A stretch of DNA of 64,000 bases, from the NCBI GenBank assembly GCA_017398585.1, contig JAFQFS010000156.1, forward strand, positions 33,259 to 97,258, in the 5' to 3' direction. The notes under the pieces were generated by a model that searched no databases, was not told where the DNA came from, and saw only the letters and a program-made list of their open reading frames with translations. The position numbers were made by a program, and so were the translations under genes. This document shows, piece by piece, positions 7,765 through 38,353 of this stretch (position 1 is the stretch's first letter; every line of letters begins with the position of its first letter). Origin of the DNA: Clostridia bacterium. Its GTDB lineage: Bacteria > Bacillota > Clostridia > Oscillospirales > CAG-272.

Positions 7765-8417
7765 AGATCCGGGATGTTGTTGGACAATATCGTACAACCT
7801 ATTACTATGCAGATATCGATGGAAAGGAATACCATCCATATCCCTGGTGCGGAATGGGACCGTTCCGGGACGGTCTGGCTCTTGTCTGGACATCTTCCAG
7901 GACCATTTTTGAACCTATCTCGATCCCGCCGTACTACTGTCCGATTCAATATAATCCGGATCTTCCCTACGGAGAATTGGAAGACGATCGTTCGGATACC
8001 CCGTCGGTAACCAAGTACGGTTACATAAATTGCGAGGGAGAACTGGTCATTCCGTGTGAATTTGATTCTGCAGGAAACTTCTATGACGGATATGCCCGTG
8101 TGGAAAAGGACGGGAAGGAGGGATACATTGACACATCCGGACGGATCCTTTATCCCGGGCAGCCGAATCCGGAGATCGGTGCGGATTTTTTCAGAAAGCC
8201 CGTAAGAATCTATGAAAACGGATATTTCGGCTTCCTCGGTACAGACGGAAGAAAACTGACGGAATCCAAATGGAAAAAGGCCAACGAGTTTTCTGAAGGT
8301 TATGCAGCCGTCAAGGACAGGAATACAGACAAATGGGGGATCCTCAATTCGGAAGGCAATCTGAGTTGTCCGTACCGTTGGGAATGGATCGGGGATTTCC
8401 ACAGACGCGAAGAGTGA
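7671..8417 (+). CDS. WG-repeat (KWG-like) protein, possibly the 3' part of the same broken gene
   Basis: GYINCEGELVIPCEFDSAGNFYDGYARVEKDGKEGYIDTSGRIL and FGFLGTDGRKLTESKWKKANEFSEGYAAVKDRNTDKWGILNSEGN. The frame is open upstream to the TGA at about 7579-7581 and reads ...YENDSG before the first ATG. Confidence 0.6.
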   Translation: MGLLDMYGNAIIPCRHNSVAYEGYWKDGNLLKIRDVVGQYRTTYYYADIDGKEYHPYPWCGMGPFRDGLALVWTSSRTIFEPISIPPYYCPIQYNPDLPYGELEDDRSDTPSVTKYGYINCEGELVIPCEFDSAGNFYDGYARVEKDGKEGYIDTSGRILYPGQPNPEIGADFFRKPVRIYENGYFGFLGTDGRKLTESKWKKANEFSEGYAAVKDRNTDKWGILNSEGNLSCPYRWEWIGDFHRREE

Positions 8418-17200: not shown

Positions 17201-18231
17201 TCATGATCCGCGGCAATCTTGGGGAGGACTATTTCCTCACCACGGACGGGATGTACATTGACCGTCTGACGAGAGACAGCCGTCTTCCGGGGATTTCGTA
17301 TCCCGAAACACCGGAGGAACTGCGGAAAGTTTCGTTCTCTCAGTTTTCCGGACGTGGGGAACACTTTTCCGGAGTGTTGACCAGACAGTCGGACGGCGTT
17401 ATCCGCTGTTCGGGCGGTCTTCCCGCCTGCCAGGCAGGAAACATCCTCCGGATCGAGGGACTGGAATCCGTCCGTCATCTTGCGCCGGTAACGTTTGAGA
17501 TCACCGAAAAAGACCTTTATGAGGCGAAGGAGGACAACCGTGCCCGCGCACTGGCGGAAAAGAAGTCCGCCGGACCGCTGCGGATCACCCGCGACGATAT
17601 GGGATGGGAGAATGCCGTACCGGCGGAGATTTCCCGCGAGGGACAGCAGATCCGGGGTACATTCCGTGCGATGTACGACGAAAATGCACTGCATCTGCAC
17701 TGGGACGTAAAAGGGATCCGCTGGCGCAACGGCGGAAACGACTGGCATATTTTATTCAAAACCGGGGACTGTGTGGATTTCCAGTGCAGTCCGTCCGCGA
17801 ACCGGGAGCAGAGTGCCGCTGACGGGGACTTCCGTCTGCTGATCGCGCCGTATATGGGGGACAATGCCGTGGTTCTGATGAAGCAGTGCAGCAGTACGGC
17901 GGATGAGCGGGATGCGTTTGTTTACACGTCTCCCGTGATGGATGCACCATTTGACGAGGTACGCAGACTGCGGGAGATTCATCCCGACGTGTCGGCGGAT
18001 GCGGAAGGCGTGACGGTGCGGGTCCGTGTACCGTGGAGCGGCCTCGGCATGGCGCCTCCGGCAGCGGGAACTGCGCTTGCAGGAGACATTGGGATCATTG
18101 CCGCGGATGCGGAAGGAAAGAGCAATGCGGCGCGTATTTACCGAAGCAACACCTGCACCAATCTGGTCAACGATCAGCCCGGAGAAGCGGTTCTTCATCC
18201 GGAGGCATTTTCGGAGATCCGTTTTGAATGA
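14227..18231 (+). CDS. large multidomain protein: CBM9/DOMON-like ends, FlgD-Ig-like module, NHL-type beta-propeller; function unknown
   Basis: 1334 aa. VTVDGCFDDWDLSG...AAAMWDKDYLYLAFDW at the N-terminus and FRAMYDENALHLHWDV near the C-terminus (CBM9-like). VLWDGLDENGDLVPSGTYLL (FlgD-Ig-like). IAADREGCIYLADDTCSQIVKFTPDGREL and IAVDRSGRIWVTEEG (NHL-like). No signal peptide. Confidence 0.6.
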   Translation: MTQKHIRPAENMIGRQTHNVGFSAVPAPVTVTVDGCFDDWDLSGQILCCADSGIRDIFSVKAAAMWDKDYLYLAFDWRDPYPLINRFHPLQDKTRGWMADSVQLRVFADGQPAWITFWPFEGDKPAVDIVYLQDRDHMDGDIEHSTVYYTGISGEAELGGGIASAYRMAEDGKGFLHEVRLPWSLLYKKPHTAVSGETIRLGMEFQYGTPGGNQFPMHQYSDNMQPGKTSRVFYWTNVDAWGDLTLLDASVSDPRRYVEESEAPQGSIPLRCRIPADAKTFTLTIGTPDGRRIRNAAGGFPVESYKVGEEDGETVVEVLWDGLDENGDLVPSGTYLLSGLTADRIDGYYESSFYNPGTPAWETGNSESAWGADHMPAHRLAAAGDGMVVCSQFAEGGYGTFLLNTDGEQVFRKRWSEKRGTNAAAADDRYVYIVPNDWSVSGVQLLRMNVSDGSCAPFFRDGAECPMPYPLTDLFGVSAEELPDVLAMTAAGGQLIARCSDHTVRVIDPENGVQRRVYPLEADGAAESNRFSLAHGGPAKRSASCSVASDGDHVWYIADTVVYLLDLADGTAVPLPLNGITKPMCIAADREGCIYLADDTCSQIVKFTPDGRELLRIGKPGGRTRQGTYDRDGFIDITSIAVDRSGRIWVTEEGTKPRRISVWNPDGTFCREFIGNAGYAGQGTFLHSHRPDKAYAELNELVFRPETGTWETENVMYRPDPEKGLAAAPGYSDFDSGNVFFSSASGEEREYFAVLGMQRTTSFFLMRKDGDRWNPVAAVASVADLQNLLGGQYNAWVVRAPYGEWADSDPADVVFWNDWNNDGYVTKDECVILPSFCRTWNGGEPLEKIEPAVPFFSCCCSSVAPDDLSFLGTLREEGQPDAVCLVKPVSFRDDGRPVYLPEGIRRITDRFELHGSSAQLPGKGLAVAFIRQNDKNWIAGFDRETGVIRWKYASPYHGVHGSHTAPMPKPGMLIGCLKIAGIAEHCGDSDVFMIRGNLGEDYFLTTDGMYIDRLTRDSRLPGISYPETPEELRKVSFSQFSGRGEHFSGVLTRQSDGVIRCSGGLPACQAGNILRIEGLESVRHLAPVTFEITEKDLYEAKEDNRARALAEKKSAGPLRITRDDMGWENAVPAEISREGQQIRGTFRAMYDENALHLHWDVKGIRWRNGGNDWHILFKTGDCVDFQCSPSANREQSAADGDFRLLIAPYMGDNAVVLMKQCSSTADERDAFVYTSPVMDAPFDEVRRLREIHPDVSADAEGVTVRVRVPWSGLGMAPPAAGTALAGDIGIIAADAEGKSNAARIYRSNTCTNLVNDQPGEAVLHPEAFSEIRFE

Positions 18232-18324
18232 GGGGACGGGGTGAGAGAATACGTGTGAATTTTTCGGGAAAGACGGGTATACGATGTAGCCGCATACCCC
18301 GCCGTTCCGCACCCAATCTTTTTC

Positions 18325-18353
18325 TTGATAAATCCCCGGATTTGTGGTAAAAT
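18325..18353 (+). promoter_or_regulatory. sigma-A type promoter for the AAA-ATPase/PD-(D/E)XK gene
   Basis: TTGATA (18325-18330), 17-nt spacer, TGgTAAAAT with TAAAAT at 18348-18353. Confidence 0.5.
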
Positions 18354-18399
18354 AATACCGGATACTTACGAATGGATTATGACAGGAGGTGTACAGAGA

Positions 18400-19986
18400 A
18401 TGGGCAGTTATTTGAACCCGGGAAGTAAGGACTTTCAGGAAAGTCTGAATTCAAAAATCTATGTGGACAAAACCCTGCTGATCGAACGGACGAACGAACT
18501 GGTAAATACCAGACAGAAATTCGTCTGTCTGAGCCGTCCGCGCCGGTTCGGGAAATCCATGGCGGCAGATATGCTGGCGGCATATTACAGCTGCGGGGAA
18601 GATACCTCCGCAATGTTTGAAAATCTGAAAATAGCGAAAGCGGAATCGTTCAAAGAACACCTGAATCGGTATGATGTCATCAAGCTCAATATGCAGCTGT
18701 TCCTCAGTACCACACACAACGTAGAAGAAATGCTGGAAGTATTGCAGAAACGCGTTGTGAGAGAGCTGAAACGAGCTTATCCGGATATTGTTGACGGAGA
18801 ATCACTGATCTGGGCAATGACAGATGTCTACACGGAGACCAACCGCCCGTTTGTGATCCTGATTGACGAATGGGACTGCCTGTTCCGGGAATATGCTCAC
18901 AATACCGACGCGCAGAGGATGTATCTGGATTTCCTGCGTGCATGGCTGAAGGATCAGAATTACGTGGCACTTGCCTATATGACGGGAATCCTGCCGATCA
19001 AGAAATACGGTACCCATTCCGCGTTGAATATGTTTACGGAGTATTCCATGGCGGATTCTGGAAGTTTAGCGGAGTTTTTCGGATTCACGGAGGCGGAAGT
19101 AAAGGTGCTCTGTGAAGAATACAGTATGGATTTTGACGAAGCCCGTTCATGGTATGACGGATATGATCTTGTAACGAACAGTGCAAATGGGAATATTCAT
19201 TATTCCATGTACAGCCCCAAGTCTGTGGTAGAAGCGATGCTGCGTCACAAGTACGGTCCCTACTGGAATCAGACGGAAACCTACGAGGCACTGAAAGTCT
19301 ATATCCAGATGAACATGGACGGTCTGAAGGATGCGGTTGTCCGGATGCTTGCCGGAGAGAGTGTTGAGATCAATACCGGCACGTTCACGAACGACATGAC
19401 CACATTTGCGAGGAAGGACGACGTGCTGACCCTGCTGGTACATCTGGGATATCTGACTTATGATTCCGAAAAATGTACGGTCTCCATACCCAATAAGGAA
19501 GTCGCCCAGGAATACGTCAATGCGATCAGCACGATGGACTGGAGTGAGGTAACACGATCCGTGGAAGCGTCACGGAAACTGCTGCAGTCCTTATGGGATA
19601 TGGATGCGGAAGCGGTGGCGAAAGGAATCGATCAGGCGCACGACGAGATATCGATTCTGCAGTACAACGATGAGAATTCACTGAGCTGTGTGATCGGACT
19701 GGCATTCTATTCCGCAAAAGATTACTATACAATCGTCCGTGAAATGCCGAGCGGTAAGGGATTTGCCGACATTTTCCTGATTCCGCGGCCGAAGCATATG
19801 GATAAACCTGCGGTAGTGATTGAGCTGAAGAAGGATAAGGATGCACATGGAGCCATCGATCAGATCAGGCAGAAGAACTATGTGAAAGCACTGGAAGACT
19901 ACAAGGGAAATCTGTTGCTGGCGGGGATCAATTACGATAAGGAAAAGAAACACACCTGTGTGATTGAGAAGTGGATTTGTGAATGA
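18400..19986 (+). CDS. predicted AAA-ATPase (AAA-ATPase_like) fused to PD-(D/E)XK nuclease-like domain (PDDEXK_9 type)
   Basis: Start moved to the ATG at 18400 (AGGAGG RBS). The protein begins MGSYLNPGSKDFQESLNSKIYVDKTLLI...CLSRPRRFGKSM, with the family's P-loop-like RRFGKS. The C-terminus has GKGFADIFLIP...PAVVIELKKDKD, a D...ExK nuclease motif. Confidence 0.7.
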   Translation: MGSYLNPGSKDFQESLNSKIYVDKTLLIERTNELVNTRQKFVCLSRPRRFGKSMAADMLAAYYSCGEDTSAMFENLKIAKAESFKEHLNRYDVIKLNMQLFLSTTHNVEEMLEVLQKRVVRELKRAYPDIVDGESLIWAMTDVYTETNRPFVILIDEWDCLFREYAHNTDAQRMYLDFLRAWLKDQNYVALAYMTGILPIKKYGTHSALNMFTEYSMADSGSLAEFFGFTEAEVKVLCEEYSMDFDEARSWYDGYDLVTNSANGNIHYSMYSPKSVVEAMLRHKYGPYWNQTETYEALKVYIQMNMDGLKDAVVRMLAGESVEINTGTFTNDMTTFARKDDVLTLLVHLGYLTYDSEKCTVSIPNKEVAQEYVNAISTMDWSEVTRSVEASRKLLQSLWDMDAEAVAKGIDQAHDEISILQYNDENSLSCVIGLAFYSAKDYYTIVREMPSGKGFADIFLIPRPKHMDKPAVVIELKKDKDAHGAIDQIRQKNYVKALEDYKGNLLLAGINYDKEKKHTCVIEKWICE

Positions 19987-29274: not shown

Positions 29275-29330
29275 AGAGGAGGACAGTACCCGCCAAACTT
29301 TCTATTTTCAACTACATATTATCTCTATGA

Positions 29331-29364
29331 AACCCAGCCAATCCGGCTGGGTTATTTTCATTTT
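29331..29364 (+). terminator. rho-independent terminator between rtcB and the amidoligase gene
   Basis: Arms AACCCAGCC (29331-29339) and GGCTGGGTT (29345-29353), then ATTTTCATTTT. Confidence 0.55.
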
Positions 29365-29382
29365 ACGAGGTAATATTTTATT

Positions 29383-30483
29383 ATGACCACCCCCACCTGC
29401 ACACTCTGCAGCCACAACACCCCCGCCGAGGATATCCTCGAATTCGCCGACCATCTCCTCTGTCCCGACTGCGTGACCCGCTACACTACCGAATGCCAAT
29501 GCTGCGGCGAACGCATCTGGTTCGCCGACAACGCCGGTTCCCACGGCTTCCCGCTGTGTCAGGGCTGCTACGAACAGCACTATACCCACTGTACCTCCTG
29601 CGGCTGTATCCTCCATCTTGCTGAAGCCTATTATCCCGACGATGATGACGATCCCTACTGTCGCTCCTGTTACTCCGCACGTGCCGAATCCCAGAGCATC
29701 AACGACTACAACTACAAGCCTGATCCCATTTTCTATGGAACCGGCGAACGATTCTTCGGTGTGGAACTGGAGATCGACGGTGCAGGCGAATGTACTTCCA
29801 ATGCAGAACGCATCCTCGAAACCGCACACCGCAACGGTTTGGAATACATCTACTGCAAGCATGATGGTTCGCTCGAAGACGGTCTGGAGATCGTCACGCA
29901 CCCGATGTCGCCTATGTTCCACCAGTACGAAATGCCGTGGCAGGCGATCCTCGACAAAGCCGTCCGCCTCGGCTATACCTCCCACCAGAGTGGTACCTGT
30001 GGTCTGCATATCCACGTCAACCGTACCGCATTCGGCGATACCGAAGCCGAACAGGATGAAGTTATCGCAAGAATCCTGTACCTCTTCGAACGTCATTGGG
30101 AGGAGCTTCTCAAATTCAGCCGCCGTACCCGCCGTCAGCTTGACCGCTGGGCTGCCCGTTACGGTTACAAGGACAAACCGAAAGACATCCTCGAACACGC
30201 CAAGAAAGGCAGCGCAGGACGCTACACCTGTGTGAACCTGACAAACTTCCACACCATCGAATTCCGCATTTTCCGCGGTACCCTCAAATACAACACCCTC
30301 ATCGCCACGCTGCAGATGGTCAACCACATCTGCGACGCGGCGATTCTTTTGTGTGATGAGGAAATGCGCAACCTGTCGTGGAGCGACTTCATGATGGGGA
30401 TCACCGAACCGGAGCTGATCCAGTATCTCAAGGAACGTCGGCTGTACATCAACGACAAAATCGAAAGCGAGGAGGAAGTGTAA
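29383..30483 (+). CDS. Amidoligase_2 family enzyme (glutamine-synthetase-like fold) with Cys-rich zinc-ribbon N-terminal extension
   Basis: 366 aa. FGVELEIDG, KHDGSLEDGLEIVTHPM, CGLHIHVN and TIEFRIFRGTL match the amidoligase core. The first ~96 aa carry six CxxC-type pairs. Confidence 0.75.
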   Translation: MTTPTCTLCSHNTPAEDILEFADHLLCPDCVTRYTTECQCCGERIWFADNAGSHGFPLCQGCYEQHYTHCTSCGCILHLAEAYYPDDDDDPYCRSCYSARAESQSINDYNYKPDPIFYGTGERFFGVELEIDGAGECTSNAERILETAHRNGLEYIYCKHDGSLEDGLEIVTHPMSPMFHQYEMPWQAILDKAVRLGYTSHQSGTCGLHIHVNRTAFGDTEAEQDEVIARILYLFERHWEELLKFSRRTRRQLDRWAARYGYKDKPKDILEHAKKGSAGRYTCVNLTNFHTIEFRIFRGTLKYNTLIATLQMVNHICDAAILLCDEEMRNLSWSDFMMGITEPELIQYLKERRLYINDKIESEEEV

Positions 30484-31397
30484 TGTGCTGCTTATTCGGA
30501 ATCATTGACTATGGCAGAAGTCTGAGTATGTCTCAGAAGGAGCATATCCTGACTGTCCTCTCAAGGGAATGCGAACTTCGCGGTGTTGATGCCACAGGGA
30601 TCGCTTACAATGGTCAGGAGAGACTTCATATTTACAAACGTCCACTTCCTGCGCATAAAATGAAATTCCGCGTACTGTCCGATACCAATATCATCATGGG
30701 ACACACACGGATGACCACGCAGGGAAGTGAGCAGAAAAATCGGAACAATCATCCGTTTGGTGGGACAACTTTTGCGTTGGCGCACAACGGTATCATTGAT
30801 AATGACTGAGAGCTACGGAAGAGAGAGAATCTTCCTTCGACGGATGTAGAAACCGACAGCTATATTGCGGTACAGCTTCTCGAACGTTCGGATACCTTGA
30901 CCTTCGACAGTCTGCGCGATATGGCGGACCTGCTGAGCGGAACGTTCACGATCACCGTATTGGATGATTGCGACAACCTCTATTTCATCCGTGGCAGTAA
31001 TCCGATGTGCCTGTATCACTGGGAGAATCATGGACTGTACCTGTATGCCTCCACGGAAGAGATATTACTCGGTGCGCTGAGAAATTTGCGGTTCTCGCTT
31101 GGTAAGCCGAAGGAAGTTCCTCTCAGAGCAGGCGATATCCTTCGTATTGACAAATCTGGGGAGCTGACCTACAACAACTTTACGATGAAGCCGATGTACA
31201 CCCGTCCGTATAGTTTTGCTCTGTGGGATTACTATCCGTCCTGCATCAAAGCGGAAGAATCCTATATGGATGATCTCTATTCCATCTCAGGGGCATTCGG
31301 CTATACACGGGAGGACATCGACGCACTGTTGGAAGAAGGAATCACACCGGAGGAAATCGAAGAGTATTTCTACGGCATGGTTCCCTATGAGCTGTGA
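30483..31397 (+). pseudogene. class II (Ntn) glutamine amidotransferase-like protein interrupted by in-frame TGA at 30807-30809
   Basis: MCCLFGI... provides the Cys2 nucleophile. The ATG overlaps the amidoligase stop (TAATG at 30481-30485). ...LAHNGIIDND-TGA-ELRKRENLPSTDVETDSYIAVQLLE... continues in the same frame to 31397. Confidence 0.65.
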
Positions 31398-31491
31398 AGG
31401 GAGGTGAACGGATGGACAATATGTGTATTGGCGTGCCGCCGCGTCGTTAGGATCGCCGCGGAAAATGGCCCATGCCAGAATGAGAAACATA

Positions 31492-31528
31492 ACCCTATTG
31501 CCATACTTTTACGGTATGCTAATAGGGT
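31492..31528. promoter_or_regulatory. imperfect inverted repeat upstream of the recombinase gene (candidate recombinase binding/crossover or autoregulatory site)
   Basis: ACCCTATTGCCATAC (31492-31506) faces GGTATGCTAATAGGGT (31513-31528), 22 nt before the ATG at 31550. Confidence 0.4.
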
Positions 31529-31549
31529 GTACTTCAATGGGAGGAATTT

Positions 31550-32107
31550 ATGAAAATCGGATACATCAGATGCAGCAGTTCTGATCAGAATACCGCACGG
31601 CAGGAAGTGCTGATGCAGGAACTGGGTGTGGAACAGGTCTACATTGACCGCATGAGCGGTAAGAACACCGATCGACCGGAATTACAACGGATGATGAACT
31701 ACGTCCGCGAAGGCGATACGGTGATTGTGGAGTCCATCAGCCGGTTTGCGAGAAATACCCGCGACCTGCTGGAGCTGATCGATTACCTGAACCGCAAGAA
31801 TGTGGAATTTGTATCGAAGAAGGAAGTAATCGATACGTTAACTCCGACAGGAAAATTCATGTTGACAATCTTTGGTGCTGTCGCGGAGTTGGAACGCGAG
31901 TATATTTTGCATAGACAGCGCGAAGGTGTAGAGATTGCGAAAGCGAACGGTGTATATAAAGGAAGAAAGCCGATCGAACGGGAAAACTTCGCACAGGTTG
32001 TAACCCTATGGGAATCCGGCAGGATCACCGCAGTGGAAGCCATGAGGCGGCTGAATTTGAAGCCGAGCACGTTTTATCGGAAGGTCAGGAAGAGGAGAGG
32101 GGGATGA
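31550..32107 (+). CDS. small serine recombinase (resolvase/invertase family)
   Basis: 185 aa. MKIGYIRCSSSDQNTARQ carries the catalytic Ser. Also has the ESISRFARN and GAVAELEREYILHRQREG blocks and a C-terminal HTH (RITAVEAMRRLNLKPSTFYRK). Confidence 0.9.
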   Translation: MKIGYIRCSSSDQNTARQEVLMQELGVEQVYIDRMSGKNTDRPELQRMMNYVREGDTVIVESISRFARNTRDLLELIDYLNRKNVEFVSKKEVIDTLTPTGKFMLTIFGAVAELEREYILHRQREGVEIAKANGVYKGRKPIERENFAQVVTLWESGRITAVEAMRRLNLKPSTFYRKVRKRRGG

Positions 32108-32250
32108 CAGAAAGCACTTCATTCCCCTTCGGATCCCTTCTGAGCTTATGTAAACTCTTACTTGCACTCTAACCATATTGTAAAGGAAATGTTGTCTATG
32201 AATGACAGTCCTGAAAAAATATTATTTCAATCCCAAAAAGGAGAAAAATT

Positions 32251-32826
32251 ATGGTAATCGAAAATGAAAGCAGATTAACTGCAGTAAGAGAAGGCAGAGT
32301 ACTGGATGGGAAAATTCAGATTGAAGGATCCAGTGAAACCTTTACTCTCGTATTATCCAACAAAGAAGTTGTTGTTCCGGAAATTATGGGACCAGATGCA
32401 TATGGAGAGATTGATCCTATCCATGTGTCCGACAGAGAATACGGAAAAGTACAGTTTTATAATGACACCGAAGAATGTTTGTATAAAGGGGACAGAGGAA
32501 ACATTCTTTATTTCAGCGCAAGAAGTACTTCCTGTAATACCCCTTGCGGCGATATGAATGAGCTTATCCATTTTGTTTTATACGGATCGCTTTCAGAGGA
32601 ACTGAAAGACGCTTCGCATAGGGTTGTCTGGGTGAGCGATGTGGCGAACTGTACCAGAGACTATGTGATGATTCAGGACGAGGCGTTTTATTCGAAAGTG
32701 AAATCGCTTTATGCGCCGGAAGTTTGTTGGTATATCCACAATTATGTCAAGGATGCATACGGAGACTTTCCGATCGGCTTTGGAGCCGGCATCATTCGCG
32801 ATGGAGTATTTGAAAGTCTGTGCTGA
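32251..32826 (+). CDS. hypothetical protein
   Basis: 191-aa ORF with AAGGAG RBS and AT-rich codon usage. I recognise no motif. Confidence 0.5.
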   Translation: MVIENESRLTAVREGRVLDGKIQIEGSSETFTLVLSNKEVVVPEIMGPDAYGEIDPIHVSDREYGKVQFYNDTEECLYKGDRGNILYFSARSTSCNTPCGDMNELIHFVLYGSLSEELKDASHRVVWVSDVANCTRDYVMIQDEAFYSKVKSLYAPEVCWYIHNYVKDAYGDFPIGFGAGIIRDGVFESLC

Positions 32827-33001
32827 AACTTGTGAGATGGGGGCAGGGGGATTCTTGCCTCCTTTCTCTCTGTACAGCGTTGATTTTTTGCTGAGCAAAC
32901 AAAAAATCGGTTGTATAGTATATATAAAAAGTGAATTCACTTTTTTAAAAGGGAACATGGGAGTAAACATAATTGTAAATCAATAAAGGAGGTCATTGCT
33001 A

Positions 33002-33358
33002 ATGAATGACAACAACAAAACCGAAATGATCCGGGCTCTGAGAAACCGTACCACAAAGCTTCAGCGGGAAGGAGACTACTGGGATCAGGAAGAAATCGAA
33101 AAACTTAAAGATATGTTTAACGAAGGTGTAGGCATCAGTGACATTGCACTGCAGCTTCAGAGAACCGAGCCTGCGGTACAGCAGCAGATCGAGAAACTGG
33201 ATCTGTACCGTCGGAAGGACAGACCGCAGCGCAGGAAACAGAATAAGAAACGCTGTGAGTATGCGGACAACTGCCCTCATACGCCGGAGACCTGTCCGAA
33301 GTTCCGGAAATGCAGAGAGGAAGGAATGGAATGTTCAGAGAGTACGAAGAACTGCTGA
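33002..33358 (+). CDS. hypothetical small DNA-binding-like protein with Lys/Arg-rich and Cys-rich tail
   Basis: ATG at 33002, 9 nt after AAGGAGG. WDQEEIEKLKDMFNEGVGISDIALQLQRTEPAVQQQIEKL resembles a SANT/Myb- or sigma-r4-like helix-turn-helix. The tail is RRKQNKKRCEYADNCPHTPETCPKFRKC. Confidence 0.45.
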   Translation: MNDNNKTEMIRALRNRTTKLQREGDYWDQEEIEKLKDMFNEGVGISDIALQLQRTEPAVQQQIEKLDLYRRKDRPQRRKQNKKRCEYADNCPHTPETCPKFRKCREEGMECSESTKNC

Positions 33359-33522
33359 CCGCACAGGAAGCCGCTGAAATGCTGAGAGTCGGACATAACG
33401 CGATCTACGCTTTGCTGAAGAGCGGGAAGCTGAAAGGGTTCCGAGTAGGTCGGGTGTGGAAGATACCTAAGGAGGCGGTGGAGGAATATGTGCGCGATAG
33501 CGCGAAGCTGTGGAAGAAATGA
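33331..33522 (+). CDS. excisionase-family (MerR-like) helix-turn-helix protein
   Basis: MFREYEELLTAQEAAEMLRVGHNAIYALLKSGKLKGFRVGRVWKIPKEAVEEYV. Overlaps the preceding gene by 28 nt. Confidence 0.7.
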   Translation: MFREYEELLTAQEAAEMLRVGHNAIYALLKSGKLKGFRVGRVWKIPKEAVEEYVRDSAKLWKK

Positions 33523-33526
33523 GATA

Positions 33527-33555
33527 CCCCCGAGGACTGTGGATGTCCTCGGGGG
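33527..33555 (+). terminator. hairpin after the Xis-like gene
   Basis: Arms CCCCCGAGGAC (33527-33537) and GTCCTCGGGGG (33545-33555), then AGTTT. Confidence 0.5.
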
Positions 33556-33813
33556 AGTTTGCACGGATGGTAGAAAAGCCGTGATAAGCATAGATATATG
33601 AAGTAAATCTTTAACAATGCAGCAAACAATAAGATAAAATAATATGGGCGCCCCAGGGCAAGAGTTGCAGAAACTCTTGCCCCTTGCGTAAACTATAGAG
33701 GAGGAAATACCTATATGTAGATATACACTGATAGACTATCTATACATCATTAATATACAAATATAGTATATATAAACAATACAACTGACATGAAAAACAG
33801 GAGGTACAAAATC

Positions 33814-34335
33814 ATGGCAATTTTTAAGACAGCAAATAAGAAAGGCAAGTATCATGATGATGAGGCAAGATATGATATCCTCAGATATATTCTGCAGGAA
33901 TACAAGCTTCCGCATCGGTGTTTTATGGGATATAATTTCCCTGGACTGATGATTGAGGATCCGACGAGAGCAGCTGCCTATTATGCAGCATGTATGGATA
34001 CAACTGCGGCAAAATTTAACAAGAGCAATGGTGTAAAGGTACGGCAGTTCATTGTGAGTTTTGCTTCGCAGGAACTGGAAGATTACAGAATTGCGAATGA
34101 GATCGCTCACAAATTGTCTGCTTTCTATAGGATGGAATATGAGATGGTATATGCGGTTCATGAAGATACGGGAAATCTGAACATCCATATTGTAATCAAT
34201 TCGGTCAGTTATGTGGACGGACATCGCTATGGCGGAACCAGAAAAGAACATCATGCTTTTTTGAACTACGCCAAGGCTGTACTTCGTCCCTATGGGATTA
34301 ATTTATGGTATCAGAGCAATAAGGAAACAGTTTAA
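33814..34335 (+). CDS. short relaxase/mobilisation-nuclease-domain-like protein
   Basis: ATG at 33814 after AGGAGG. AVHEDTGNLNIHIVINSV matches the relaxase HxDxxxxxHxH histidine motif. At 173 aa it is much shorter than typical MobA/VirD2 relaxases. Confidence 0.5.
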   Translation: MAIFKTANKKGKYHDDEARYDILRYILQEYKLPHRCFMGYNFPGLMIEDPTRAAAYYAACMDTTAAKFNKSNGVKVRQFIVSFASQELEDYRIANEIAHKLSAFYRMEYEMVYAVHEDTGNLNIHIVINSVSYVDGHRYGGTRKEHHAFLNYAKAVLRPYGINLWYQSNKETV

Positions 34336-34370
34336 AAGAATACAGGGTATTTGCTGTAAACTCACAGAAA

Positions 34371-34421
34371 TTCAAGCAGATAGTATAGCTTTGAACAAGC
34401 CGCTGTCTGCTTGAATTTTTT
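34371..34421 (+). terminator. rho-independent terminator after the relaxase-like gene
   Basis: Arms TTCAAGCAGA (34371-34380) and TCTGCTTGAA (34406-34415), then TTTTTT. Confidence 0.6.
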
Positions 34422-34437
34422 ATACCGGAGGATGAGT

Positions 34438-34779
34438 ATGTCCAGCCCTACCATCACCGTTTTACTGGTGAACCCTTATGAAGTTCCGAAACCGATCGAA
34501 ATCCCCGCAGAACTGTCCGTCTATCAGAAACTTGTCGGAGGTACGATCCAGGCAATTTATCCCTCAATGGAAGACCCGATCGCACTGATCTGCAACGACG
34601 AGGGCAAGTTGCTCGGACTCCCGTGGAACCGTCCGCTGTTCGATGAAGATGGGAACCTGTACGACATTATTGCAGGAACCTTCTTCGTTGCCGGCCTGAC
34701 GAAGGACGACTTTGGTTCCCTCTCGCCGGAGCTGATCCAGAAATATACTGCGGTGTTTGCAACGGTATTTCTGATCTGA
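34438..34779 (+). CDS. DUF3846 domain protein
   Basis: MSSPTITVLLVNPYEVPKPIEIPAELSVYQKLVGGTIQAIYPSMEDPIALICNDEGKLLGLPWNR...IIAGTFFVAGL is a typical DUF3846 pattern of conjugative and mobilisable elements. Confidence 0.7.
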   Translation: MSSPTITVLLVNPYEVPKPIEIPAELSVYQKLVGGTIQAIYPSMEDPIALICNDEGKLLGLPWNRPLFDEDGNLYDIIAGTFFVAGLTKDDFGSLSPELIQKYTAVFATVFLI

Positions 34780-34807
34780 ATTCCAGCTTCTCAAAAGGCC
34801 GAAACGA

Positions 34808-34844
34808 TTAAAGAGGAAATGTTTGTGAAGCATTTCCTCTTTAA
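34808..34844. terminator. hairpin between convergent DUF3846 and ATPase genes
   Basis: 14-bp arms TTAAAGAGGAAATG (34808-34821) and CATTTCCTCTTTAA (34831-34844). Confidence 0.5.
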
Positions 34845-35049
34845 TGGGACTATACATTGAATGTTTTTTGGTAGTATACCGGTTCAGATAAGGCAGATTC
34901 GGGTGGTTCGGATGCATTGATCTGAGAAGGGGGATTGGGAGAGGGAAGATTATCTTCGGAAAGAGCCGTTGAACTGTCGATCGGGATCGTCGGATGAGGT
35001 GAGCATGAGAAAAGGAACTGTCCTTTGGAAAGCTGCTCATCCAGGATTT

Positions 35050-37767
35050 TCAGAAAATTATTTTTTCTTTTTGGGTATTACCGAGCAGACCGGCAATTTT
35101 TTTATTGCCTTCCTTTCCCGAATCGAAGAATATACGTACACCGGCTTGCTTGACACAGGTGTTGAACAAAGCACCGTTTTCGCTGCTGACCGTTTGAGAC
35201 GCAAGCCAGAAAGAAACTCCGTATTTTCGTTCTTCACGTAAAATTTCATTGATGATGGAGTTTTTACTGGTGTCAAGATGCTGGAATTCATCAATAACCA
35301 GTATGAGCGGATTTTTATTGGCGGCGTCAGAGGAGGTTTGTGTTTCATTCTTTTTTTGCCAGCGATACAAATCTGTCATGAAAGCTGCAGCCAGTTTCGA
35401 TCGCAGACTGTCGGACTCTGCACAGTTTCTGAAATCGAGTATTACTGTTTTGCCGCGATAATCATTCCAGCGAAGCGGTTTCCCGGAGAAAAAGTGGTTT
35501 TCAATAATGTCGTTCCACATTCTTTGTACAGGAACGGGAGTCTTTATGGATGGCGGGGTATCCGTGGTATCATAGCCGGACAGAGTCTTCTCGTATTTTT
35601 CTTTGTATTGATTGAAGTTTTTTGCAAAGGTGTGGAGAGTGTATACATCGCTGTGGTTCTGGGCGTACGCCTTATAGCTTCCCTGAATGATTGATTGGTA
35701 GATATCTCTGATGCCATACATTTTTTGGAGCAGATAAAAAACAGTTTCTCCATTATACAATTCATGGTTCTCCAGATCTATGCCCGGGTTATCCCCTGCG
35801 ATATCTATGATGACAGAATTGTCAGCGGAGGGCAAATCCCCCTGAAGGTGAATGACTACGGTGGTTAACTTTTGTTCGCCTGCTTGTTTTATTAATTTGG
35901 AAAGGAAGACGCTTTTACCGCAGCCGCTTTGTCCGGTGATCAGCAGATGTTTGTTCGGGACTCTTTCGTCCTCAAAATCCCAATAGACATTCGAGGAACA
36001 GTTCATATCCAGTCCTAATTTGAAATGGGACGTTTGAGGCTTTATATACGGAGGAGCTTGTGTGGGATCTTGCTTTTTTTCTTCGGCGGGGAAACGGATA
36101 CCGTATAATGCAATATCATGGTGACAGGAAATTGTATCCTCGTTGTTGATGTGTACAGTATATCTTTTTTGGTACGAGGCAGGATTGATATTGCTGGATT
36201 CCAGAATCCCTTTTTCGGAAAGCAGCTGTAATACCTCTTTTATGTGGTTCTGACCGGGAATATTCTGAAGTACACTTCGGAGAGCGGGCAGGTTGATACT
36301 CCAGACCGTATTATTTTCAGAGTCAGTACTTTCTAAAATATACGGCAGCATTTTATCCAAATAAGTGATGTACGGAAGACACTCGTTGACCGGGGCATTC
36401 AGCCGTTTGTATACGGGGATGGTATGATTATCCGCCAGTGTTTTCAGTGTATCAAGGAACAGCTGTGGAGTAACCGTTCTGACTTTGCTGATTTTGGGCA
36501 GATAGGCATCCAGCAGAATTGCTGTATTGCAGGAGTCGATGCAATTCGGGTCATCGTGAACATTTAACGGGTTCGTAATCTTTAATGAGTAACACATATC
36601 TTCCCAGGCAGTGTACAGTGTAAAAAAAATGATTTTGATAGGGGATCGGGAAAACGCATCATGCTGCAGGGCATGTTGGAATGCTGTTGGAAAGTATCTG
36701 TAAAAGTGATTGAAGTATTCCTGAAGTTCGGCAGAAGATGTCGGTGTAGAGAAACTGAGGTGAGAGGCAGAGTAACTGAAGGGAGAGAAGGATTCGGGAT
36801 CAAGAAAAATATGATAGAAGGATTTTTCCGGATGGGATTGTTCAGTGAAAAGGATTGGAACAGCAAAGTTTTCCTCAATAATTGGAAAGGAATTTGGGAT
36901 TGTTGGGAAGAGAGGAGTGCGCTGAATGGTAACAATCTTATTTACAATGGATTCAAGTTTTCCGATTGTTGAATTCCGGATACTTGGAACCTCTTCAACG
37001 ATAAAGGGAATATCATTGGTATTATTATATACTTCACAAAACTCTTTCTTGGTGGAACTGGTCAAAACACTTTCACAGACAGTTGCAGGGAAAAAGCGTG
37101 CTATGATATCAGCGCGTAAATTTGGATCTGGGATATCAAGGCACAGGATTTTGTCAGACTGCAGCTGACCGAAAAGGGAGGCAGTGAAACAGTAATGATA
37201 GTAGAGGAACAGGAAAATACGGGTATCGCGATCCAGAATCTGATTGAACGCATAGGCAATTTTCTGGCAGGTGTCAACCAAAGAGTTGTTCATGGGTACG
37301 AGATTTGCAGGTTGAATGTGCTTTGAAAATTCAGCAGGATCCTTTTCTGCGAAAGTTCTCATGAAGCGATTAATAGTACCGATGTAGTTACAGGAATTGA
37401 TCTTGTCTATCCTTTGCCATCCACCCTGATAGGGGCAGACATATTGTTTCTGTTGAAGGTTGGAGAGCGCGTTGCGAAGCTGTTCACTTGACTGTGCCGG
37501 AGAATTTATGGGGAAAACCAGGGCGTCTGGGTTTCCGATTCGAAGTTTGTATTGGTCAACAAGAAGGGAGAAAAAGGAATCGGATAGATATTCTTCCTGA
37601 GAGATTTTAATGATATGGCAGGGGTAGGCGAGTTTTTCTTCTTGGGAAGAGGTGTAAGTTTTTCCTGAAACGGATAAAAGATAAACAGGGGGGTGATGGT
37701 ATAATTTATCATAAGTTGTATAAACGACGTTTGATATAAACAGAACATCCTGCTCCTTGTTATCCAA
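35050..37767 (-). CDS. 905-aa protein: uncharacterised ~600-aa N-terminal region fused to HerA/FtsK-type P-loop ATPase
   Basis: Walker A GQSGCGKS is encoded at 35911-35934. Walker B PLILVIDEFQ is at 35281-35310. EERKYGVSFWLASQTVSS follows, as in the HerA/DUF87 (R/K)KxG...SQ block. The gene is strongly AT-rich compared with the flanking chromosome. Confidence 0.7.
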   Translation of the reverse strand: MDNKEQDVLFISNVVYTTYDKLYHHPPVYLLSVSGKTYTSSQEEKLAYPCHIIKISQEEYLSDSFFSLLVDQYKLRIGNPDALVFPINSPAQSSEQLRNALSNLQQKQYVCPYQGGWQRIDKINSCNYIGTINRFMRTFAEKDPAEFSKHIQPANLVPMNNSLVDTCQKIAYAFNQILDRDTRIFLFLYYHYCFTASLFGQLQSDKILCLDIPDPNLRADIIARFFPATVCESVLTSSTKKEFCEVYNNTNDIPFIVEEVPSIRNSTIGKLESIVNKIVTIQRTPLFPTIPNSFPIIEENFAVPILFTEQSHPEKSFYHIFLDPESFSPFSYSASHLSFSTPTSSAELQEYFNHFYRYFPTAFQHALQHDAFSRSPIKIIFFTLYTAWEDMCYSLKITNPLNVHDDPNCIDSCNTAILLDAYLPKISKVRTVTPQLFLDTLKTLADNHTIPVYKRLNAPVNECLPYITYLDKMLPYILESTDSENNTVWSINLPALRSVLQNIPGQNHIKEVLQLLSEKGILESSNINPASYQKRYTVHINNEDTISCHHDIALYGIRFPAEEKKQDPTQAPPYIKPQTSHFKLGLDMNCSSNVYWDFEDERVPNKHLLITGQSGCGKSVFLSKLIKQAGEQKLTTVVIHLQGDLPSADNSVIIDIAGDNPGIDLENHELYNGETVFYLLQKMYGIRDIYQSIIQGSYKAYAQNHSDVYTLHTFAKNFNQYKEKYEKTLSGYDTTDTPPSIKTPVPVQRMWNDIIENHFFSGKPLRWNDYRGKTVILDFRNCAESDSLRSKLAAAFMTDLYRWQKKNETQTSSDAANKNPLILVIDEFQHLDTSKNSIINEILREERKYGVSFWLASQTVSSENGALFNTCVKQAGVRIFFDSGKEGNKKIAGLLGNTQKEKIIF

Positions 37768-38131
37768 TTTATGGTTTACCTGGACGTATCCGTTTAAAAA
37801 GTAATATACATAATATCAATATAACACCTAAATTATAAAATTTAATTTAAATAAATTATAGCATAAAAAAATGGTTTTAATCAATATTTAAAAGTTTAAA
37901 TTAGGTAATTGAATTTTAATTTATAAAAGTTAAAAACAGTTTACTTGTGTAAAAACATGTAAAATTACATGTGTAGTCTGATGCGCGATTCTGTGTATGG
38001 AGTATTTGTTTTGAAGGTTATTTATACAGAACAGCCGAATCCATGGCATCCTCATTTGCCCCCATGTTACTTTTTACGCAAAAAAAGAACCTTTTCAAGC
38101 GAATCTCACTTAAAAAGGTTACTTTTTCGAT

Positions 38132-38205
<74 letters not shown>

Positions 38206-38228
38206 ATATTCAGTTTATCAACAGAAGA

Positions 38229-38314
38229 TGCCGGACACCGGGTTCGAACCGGTACGATACTTACGTATCACGGGATTTTAAGTCCCGGGCGTCTGCCAAT
38301 TCCGCCACTCCGGC
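38229..38314 (-). tRNA. tRNA-Leu (UAA), class II
   Basis: GCCGGAGTGGCGGAATTGGCAGACGCCCGGGACTTAAAATCCCGTGATACGTAAGTATCGTACCGGTTCGAACCCGGTGTCCGGCA. It has a long variable arm (GATAC/GTATC) and a perfect T-arm. Position 7:66 is G-G. Confidence 0.85.
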
Positions 38315-38353
38315 ACATTCTCCCGCATAGGGGCTTCCCTCTGTTGCTCCATC

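Follow-up and report, generated by a model that had tools for sequence, protein, structure and literature searches.

A predicted fusion of a P-loop-less initiator-helicase-like module to a HerA/FtsK-type ATPase in a decayed integrative mobilizable element from Clostridia

The Rep proteins of Staphylococcus aureus pathogenicity islands (SaPIs) and the Cch helicases of the staphylococcal cassette chromosome SCCmec are initiator-helicases of mobile genetic elements (MGEs) and consist of an N-terminal domain (NTD), an AAA+ core of the superfamily 3 (SF3) type, and a winged helix that binds the iterons of the origin (PMC9371898). In SaPI Rep1 and in PriRep5, the Walker A motif is essential (PMC9371898). 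Integrative mobilizable elements (IMEs) often encode relatives of replication initiators and sometimes an FtsK-like coupling protein of their own (PMC5704250). Here, a stretch of 64,000 nucleotides from a Clostridia bacterium (contig JAFQFS010000156.1, positions 33,259 to 97,258 of the forward strand; called the window in the following) was analyzed, in which one gene on the minus strand (34850–37811) codes, after repair of two single-nucleotide homopolymer deletions, for a protein of 987 aa. A first, sequence-only reading of the window had described this gene as an open reading frame (ORF) of 905 aa that might act as a defence system by itself, an effector or sensor being fused in cis, or might alternatively be a replication or partition ATPase of an island. 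It is the latter alternative that is favored by the evidence. The protein is predicted to join a P-loop-less module with the fold of the initiator-helicases mentioned above to a C-terminal ATPase of the FtsK-HerA superfamily, and on balance we read it as a ring-shaped DNA motor that acts on the excised element in replication or in processing for transfer, the gene context together with the fold being the reason why DNA processing of the element is preferred over defence. No earlier description appears to exist of this architecture, in which an initiator-helicase module devoid of a P-loop is joined to a HerA-type ATPase, or of the IME family that carries it; the components and the role in the processing of MGE DNA are of known kinds.

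At the level of sequence, the N-terminal module belongs to no family, just as the sequence-only reading had said: 11 family members showed no Pfam match at E ≤ 5, DUF927 included, and sequence searches of the PDB and of PHROGs with the N-module yielded nothing. By fold, however, the region is assignable. An AlphaFold2 (AF2) model of residues 1–573 of the family protein P0002, calculated from an alignment of 21 sequences, reached a pLDDT of 85.3 and a pTM of 0.76, whereas an earlier AF2 run on a 6-sequence alignment was unusable (pLDDT 48.8) and the distant members from the profile search described below were needed. When the model was compared with PDB structures by Foldseek, matches to the SCCmec Cch helicase (5dgk, E = 1.3e-9) and to SaPI PriRep1 (7pds, E = 5.8e-6) were obtained, followed by C962R of African swine fever virus (ASFV) and the helicase region of NrS-1. 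In the BFVD collection, DUF927 proteins, a 'ring shaped helicase', RepB proteins, and many primase-helicases were matched with E values down to 1.4e-13. A match of this region to a known replication domain is the outcome that the sequence-only reading had itself named as refuting a role in defence. The model begins with a β-rich N-terminal domain (residues 1–125; 37447–37811 in the window, minus strand), which lies within the whole-chain Foldseek match to Cch. Next come a degenerate AAA+/SF3-like α/β core of five strands that lacks a P-loop (residues 178–340; 36802–37290, minus strand), a helical region (residues 356–437), and a winged-helix-like domain that forms the C-terminus of the module (residues 446–570; 36094–36468, minus strand). 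Conserved segments within the AAA+-like core are RIFLFLYYHYCF (37186–37221), NTNDIPFIVEE (36991–37023), and AVPILFTEQ (36838–36864). As the winged helix of SaPI Rep and Cch binds the iterons of the origin, the winged-helix-like domain presumably serves in DNA recognition.

In none of the 21 family sequences does the N-module contain a motif of the type [AG]x4GK[ST]. The loop after β1, where the sequence reads IPDQKLRS, varies across the family, the acidic residues at the end of β3 are not conserved, and residues 302–320, the segment in which the DNA-contacting pre-sensor-1 hairpin is expected, are modelled with low confidence and are variable in length. The spacing of these elements in the P0002 model agrees with that of SaPI Rep1, in which the lysine is K186, the hairpin comprises residues 248–253, and the C-terminal domain (CTD) follows after residue 346 (PMC9371898). 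From the fold match, the lack of a Walker A motif, the non-conserved acidic residues, the variable hairpin region, and this spacing, we infer that the N-module is a catalytically dead helicase scaffold which has lost its P-loop. Two candidate motifs in the N-module were considered and rejected: the sequence SGKT at residues 34–37 does not qualify as a Walker A motif, as it is absent in homologs and lies inside the β-rich N-domain, and a primase motif of the AEP type (hhhDxD at ILCLDIPD) was dismissed because its aspartates are not conserved across the family.

In whole-chain fold, the N-terminal 573 aa are like SCCmec Cch and SaPI Rep/PriRep (DUF927-type, SF3/MCM-like; 5DGK and 7PDS), with which they have in common the order of NTD, AAA+-like α/β core, helical region, and C-terminal winged helix, and both Cch/SaPI Rep and the family protein are encoded on integrative mobile elements next to a recombinase. 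Unlike in Cch and SaPI Rep, sequence similarity is not detectable in the N-module of the family, the P-loop is missing, the Walker B motif is not conserved, and the region of the pore hairpin is variable. The family protein also differs from them in having a second, unrelated ATPase fused at the C-terminus, and its element differs in carrying a relaxase and in that no iteron origin was found.

The C-terminal module (34850–36045, minus strand) had been placed in the HerA/FtsK superfamily by the sequence-only reading, and profile searches with Pfam, PADLOC, NCBIfam, and the PDB agree in assigning residues ~580–900 to the FtsK-HerA superfamily. The Walker A motif GQSGCGKS (35911–35934) and the EERKYGVSFWLASQ block (35194–35235) are located as reported earlier, and the Walker B motif LILVIDEFQ starts where it had been placed, at 35281, but ends at 35307 and not 3 nt further on at 35310. 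Each family member possesses exactly one Walker A motif, always in the C-module, which retains Walker A, Walker B, and EGRK motifs in the family; in the window copy, the last of these reads EERK and is found within 35194–35235. The best matches of the C-module, all of them weak, were DndH/DptH, mad8, anti-phage HerA, CedB, and EccC. With the HerA/DUF87 clade (anti-phage HerA, the C-terminal ATPase of DptH/DndH, and archaeal CedB), the C-module shares the Walker A motif, an insertion of ~210 aa, a Walker B motif with DEFQ, and an EGRKYG motif, although the matches to this clade amount to only 30–60 bits, far under the family cutoffs. Scores for HerA-family models were likewise below their cutoffs (DUF87, 20.9 vs 23.2; HerA_C, 12.4 vs 22; NF042944, the NCBIfam model HerA_antiphage, 30.9 vs 850). 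Unlike HerA, the family protein has no HAS-barrel N-domain, and unlike in HerA systems, no partner gene of the NurA, SIR2, DUF4297, or Dnd type is present in the family loci. The 905-aa protein contains no 19-residue window with a hydropathy at transmembrane (TM) level (Kyte-Doolittle maximum 1.19), so that the earlier remark on the lack of clear TM helices holds, and a TM anchor was not detected in eight family members either (19-residue maxima 1.1–1.6). After a low-complexity linker rich in Ser, Pro, and Glu, the family proteins end in the C-terminal tail K-T-F-N-V-COOH (34850–34870 in the window). Clades down to ~27% identity retain the KTFNV motif, which is replaced by KIWNV in P0008 and looks like a docking tail for a partner.

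When 1.84 billion proteins were searched exhaustively with a profile of the N-terminal module, 17 representatives of this very rare family were obtained, all of them from gut Clostridia. Six homologs were found in a collection of 5.8 billion clusters, and repeating the word-indexed search with a diverse alignment brought up no proteins beyond these six. Scans of genome, metagenome, and viral contigs contributed four more short loci, and no relative of the family was encountered in the viral contigs. All full-length family members have the same two-module layout, and in public annotations, the proteins are named 'hypothetical' or 'DUF87 domain-containing'. The surroundings of the gene were inspected for homologs with identities from 98% down to ~20–25%, and in ~15 loci it belongs to one small module with a tyrosine integrase and a small MobA/VirD2 relaxase. 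Every locus long enough to show neighbours contained a tyrosine integrase and/or a MobA/VirD2 relaxase of 156–178 aa, and in intact relatives, a tyrosine integrase gene (471–474 aa) is oriented divergently from the ATPase gene. Other neighbours vary among the relatives and include genes for an HTH_17 protein, DUF3846, a NikA-like protein, a resolvase, TnpV, a GATase, and an amidoligase. Neither genes for a type IV secretion system (T4SS) nor HerA-partner effectors were seen in the neighbourhood survey of the window and the related loci. The size of the element is 8–10 kb across the family loci, and its relatives combine the features by which IMEs are defined, namely an integrase together with a relaxase or an origin of transfer (oriT), no T4SS genes, and site-specific insertion. 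Integrase, relaxase, an oriT-like hairpin, linkage to a tRNA gene, and the lack of T4SS genes together characterize the element as an IME and the ATPase gene as part of its backbone.

In the proposed ring-shaped motor, the P-loop-less helicase tier would be responsible for ring assembly and, through its winged helix, for element-specific DNA recognition, and ATP-driven translocation or unwinding of DNA would fall to the HerA-type tier. Following Int/Xis-mediated excision, the minimal relaxase would nick the conserved oriT hairpin, and the motor would then unwind or pump element DNA, leading to rolling-circle replication of the circle and/or providing a strand for a helper T4SS. The sequences and models show the gene structure, the frameshifts, the family membership, the fold similarity, the lack of an N-terminal P-loop, and the conserved gene context; we infer from them that the protein would form hexamers, be specific for certain DNA, and act in replication or transfer. 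Several points weigh against this reading and the history proposed for the window copy. The Foldseek TM-scores are low (0.3–0.4), as expected for multi-domain chains that differ in the angles between their domains. The position of the missing P-loop was deduced in the model from the order of secondary-structure elements and from the motif spacing of Rep1, not from a residue-level superposition. Searches beside the gene for an iteron array brought up only AT-rich imperfect repeats in the window and no shared iterons in six relatives, and a classical Rep-type origin is therefore not evident. The data do not separate a role in replication from one in transfer and, with a source that is apparently a metagenome-assembled genome (MAG), assembly errors might in principle explain the two homopolymer indels in the window copy. 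Should the architecture be confirmed, the protein would exemplify a pseudo-enzyme helicase scaffold driven by a motor grafted from another ATPase clade, and the backbone of a so far uncharacterised family of small mobilizable islands from gut Clostridia would thereby be defined. A more far-reaching proposal, which we regard as doubtful, is that an ATPase-less initiator-helicase ring re-motorised by fusion to a HerA-type ATPase constitutes a new class of soluble DNA motors for the replication of minimal-relaxase IMEs and/or the feeding of foreign T4SSs, and that this IME family resides preferentially beside type I-C CRISPR-Cas loci and tRNA-Met, which would hint at an interaction with CRISPR.

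Instead of being a motor of the kind just outlined, the protein might be a soluble, non-canonical type IV coupling protein (T4CP) that recognizes the relaxosome via its winged helix or its KTFNV tail and delivers the strand to a helper T4SS. T4CPs (TrwB/VirD4) and the TcpA-type proteins from Firmicute IMEs and integrative and conjugative elements (ICEs) belong to the FtsK/HerA superfamily, as does the C-module, and some IMEs encode an FtsK-related coupling protein of their own (PMC5704250). Like genes for T4CPs, the family gene resides on a mobilizable element together with a relaxase and an oriT, its linkage to the relaxase and the oriT-like hairpin being constant, and a conserved motif is located at the extreme C-terminus behind a low-complexity linker. 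TrwB_AAD_bind was the sole T4CP-type Pfam match above its cutoff (26.5 bits vs 20.5), and TraG-D_C was matched with E = 0.004. However, the match to TrwB_AAD_bind extends over only 42 residues around the P-loop (profile positions 14–55 of 387), other T4CP models scored under their cutoffs (FtsK_SpoIIIE, TcpA-type, 17.5 vs 24; TraD_Ftype, 16 vs 521), and in a PDB profile search with the C-module, TrwB was found with E = 0.33 as compared to 1e-8 for HerA. Unlike T4CPs, the family protein has no TM anchor, and its N-terminal module is of a different, replication-helicase-like type, so that we consider a function as coupling protein unlikely. A different task for such a translocase is suggested by the small resolvase gene found in most loci: acting directionally like FtsK, the protein might cooperate with the serine resolvase of the element in multimer resolution or in partition of the excised circle, and the combination of an FtsK/HerA-type motor with a winged helix recalls the logic of FtsK-gamma and KOPS. 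In L008 and L009, however, no resolvase was seen, the protein has no similarity to FtsK-gamma and lacks a TM anchor, and small resolvases are not known to need a motor, which makes a role of this kind highly improbable.

According to the sequence-only reading, the gene could by itself confer anti-phage or anti-plasmid defence, with a HerA-type ATPase coupled to an N-terminal sensor or effector. PADLOC gave domain-level matches to DndH (3.8e-17), mad8 (2.5e-12), and HerA (1e-8), the top PDB sequence matches are anti-phage HerA proteins and DptH, and some relatives have type I-C CRISPR-Cas loci or genes for Fic, Eco57I, and T5orf172 as neighbours. Every match to a defence family is confined to the P-loop domain, though, PADLOC found no system among the neighbouring genes, and HerA/DUF87-like matches or PADLOC domain matches (DndH, mad8) do not on their own indicate defence. 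In fold, the N-terminal ~570 aa correspond to a replication-initiator helicase and do not contain a nuclease, SIR2, TIR, or other effector fold. The survey of genomic context revealed no adjacent nuclease, SIR2, HerA partner, or other partner effector at any locus, the conserved neighbours being integrase, relaxase, and excisionase-like genes, and no relative was found in the viral contigs scanned. Defence is a very unlikely function for this protein, and the processing of element DNA by a ring-shaped motor is the reading retained here. Membership in a MADS system was also considered and rejected, as the matches to mad1 and mad8 are generic helix-turn-helix (HTH) and P-loop matches, respectively, and mad2–7 are absent.

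The 905-aa ORF (35050–37767, minus strand, TTG start) exists as first reported but is the middle fragment of the 987-aa gene, enclosed between two frameshifts. At 100% identity, its product matches MBQ4592510.1 from a Clostridia MAG, which is annotated as 'hypothetical protein [Clostridia bacterium]'. Intact homologs are longer (959–997 aa vs 905 aa), and in an alignment with them, the 905-aa protein falls short by ~18 N-terminal and ~75–80 C-terminal residues. The lost C-terminus (NNFLKILDEQLSKGQFLFSCS...KTFNV, followed by the stop codon) was found in another frame immediately downstream of 35050. At the 3' frameshift (35061–35066, minus strand), the coding strand has A6 as compared to A7 in L003, L005, and L001, relatives that are ~98% identical, and the final ~80 aa are thereby removed, among them the conserved LKILDEQLSKGQFLF segment and the KTFNV tail. 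At the 5' frameshift (37796–37800, minus strand), the coding strand has T5 as compared to T6 in L004, which is 98.7% identical, and translation from the native ATG at 37809–37811 gives MYITF and then a stop. With T6, the ATG at 37811, which is preceded by an AGGTG ribosome-binding site, is restored as the start. Repair of both indels leads to the 987-aa ORF, equal in length to the intact allele P0042, which is present in other samples; locus L011 possesses an intact 987-aa allele together with an intact integrase. Programmed frameshifting was rejected as an explanation because near-identical relatives carry the in-frame run lengths.

The window copy shows further lesions. Its ATPase motif EERK contains a G-to-E change with respect to EGRK, which is present in 13 of the 13 other family sequences covering the motif, and the GATase_6 gene is a pseudogene due to base substitution, which converts a CGT codon to the nonsense codon TGA (30807–30809). 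Similarity to L011 stops at 38030, the point at which the integrase gene is expected to start, and 98 bp further on the tRNA begins, indicating that the integrase was deleted in the window. On account of the integrase deletion, the two ATPase frameshifts, the EERK change, and the GATase nonsense codon, the island is, as far as its genes tell, a locked-in, decaying, and immobilised remnant of a mobilizable element, and its ATPase gene is most likely a non-functional, frameshifted, dead copy, a probable pseudogene. The biological significance of the window copy itself is limited by its being such a remnant. If both frameshifts were errors of assembly or sequencing, the gene would be intact and functional in the organism; each indel indeed concerns one base of a homopolymer run, in a gene that is AT-rich, a MAG is apparently the source, and many cluster members are fragmentary. 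Nevertheless, the GATase nonsense codon, the G-to-E change, and the integrase deletion are not homopolymer artefacts, long host ORFs are intact across the window, and the identical 905-aa product is recorded on three contigs, so that errors are a rather improbable explanation and decay of the window copy is the reading we prefer. Other copies of the element were damaged independently. In L003 and L005, a deletion links an integrase shortened to 188 aa with an ATPase that is truncated at its N-terminus, and L005 also has an A-run frameshift of its own in the ATPase gene (damage sites at 8016–8612 in L003 and ~1378 in L005; window-equivalent positions 37350 and 35741). Many protein-cluster members of the ATPase family are split as well, which suggests that the int-ATPase region may be recurrently inactivated across copies of the element.

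Judged from its sequence, the locus is a decayed IME of ~8.8 kb that extends from 29306 to about 38128 at the 3' end of tRNA-Met. It is 81% identical to L001 over 29306–37924 and 90.6% identical to L011 over 32143–38030. The leftmost gene of the island is the Amidoligase_2 gene (29383–30483, plus strand), the similarity to L001 starting at 29306, and it is followed by the GATase_6 gene (30483–31397), the gene for the small serine recombinase (resolvase) of the element (31550–32107), genes for a 191-aa unknown protein and a GcrA-like protein of 120 aa, and the gene for an HTH_17 protein of the excisionase/AlpA-like type (33310–33522); the resolvase, GATase_6, and HTH_17 genes are all on the plus strand. 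The HTH_17 protein is 94% identical to its counterpart in L001 and accounts for the generic mad1 helix-turn-helix match. A probable oriT (33656–33692, plus strand) is composed of a hairpin (33656–33682) with 11-bp arms (GGGCAAGAGTT/AACTCTTGCCC) and the conserved CCCCTTGCG that follows. Since hairpin and CCCCTTGCG are located upstream of the relaxase gene and are kept across clades by means of compensatory changes in the stem, they likely represent the oriT/nic region. Downstream lie the gene for the small relaxase of the MobA/VirD2 type, which consists of the nuclease domain only (33790–34335, plus strand; homology supports a start at 33814), and the DUF3846 gene of the element backbone (34411–34779, plus strand). 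An inverted repeat of 18 nt (34807–34845) between the converging DUF3846 and ATPase genes is a likely bidirectional terminator. The ATPase gene had been called the most AT-rich gene, and its GC content (0.424) is among the lowest, but that of the small relaxase gene (0.401) is slightly lower; the flanks have values of ~0.54. Upstream of the ATPase gene lies a very AT-rich spacer (37812–38030, GC content 0.259), which is homologous to the intergenic region between the divergent integrase and ATPase genes of intact elements.

The gene is monocistronic, with no other gene on the same strand nearby, and its 5' end faces tRNA-Met(CAT) (38129–38206) with tRNA-Leu(TAA) (38227–38315) beyond it, two points in which the earlier description was correct. 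The tRNA pair (38129–38315) is on the minus strand, and the 3' end of tRNA-Met faces the island. This 3' end is probably the attachment site of the element, because the same tRNA-Leu/tRNA-Met pair adjoins a distant family member in L009 and because, in L010, 43 nt of the tRNA-Met 3' end are repeated upstream of the ATPase gene, so that three loci, including the window, show this linkage. When the tRNA-Met flank was compared with the left end of the island, no direct repeats of at least 16 nt that could serve as att sites were found, and shorter matches were at chance level. The remaining part of the window is ordinary chromosome with genes for glycoside hydrolases, RNase Y, RNase R, and similar functions.

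The pair of Amidoligase_2 and GATase_6 genes is kept as backbone in several clades (L001, L005, L015-L019). In L001, a public gene call at 17501–18517 (corresponding to 29308–30327 of the window, minus strand) is a shadow ORF opposite the amidoligase gene, and the Pfam match belongs to the plus-strand amidoligase ORF (29383–30483 in the window) and not to the shadow ORF. The P0004 clade (L015-L019, 400–6632), the identical 994-aa ATPase of which is present on at least 10 contigs, contains genes for Fic, an Eco57I-like type IIG enzyme, T5orf172/MUG113, and DUF2971 beyond the integrase/DUF3846 end. These genes could be defence cargo carried by the element; alternatively, the element may itself reside in a defence island.

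Three different junctions connect relatives of the element to directly neighbouring type I-C CRISPR-Cas loci (L001, 5805–9651, and L003, 5609–8582; L002, 3116–3273; L011, 1–432). In L001 and L003, the integrase adjoins the 5' side of cas3, and in L002, 157 bp separate the 3' end of the ATPase gene from the start of cas3. In L011, cas2 is followed by the leader, a single CRISPR repeat (361–392) and, 40 bp further on, the 3' end of the integrase gene. No cas genes are located near the window copy. These observations suggest that adjacency of the element to CRISPR loci is commoner than chance adjacency would give. Elsewhere in the window, among genes for carbohydrate utilisation, a protein of 553 aa with AAA-ATPase_like and PDDEXK_9 nuclease domains is encoded on the plus strand (18325–19986).

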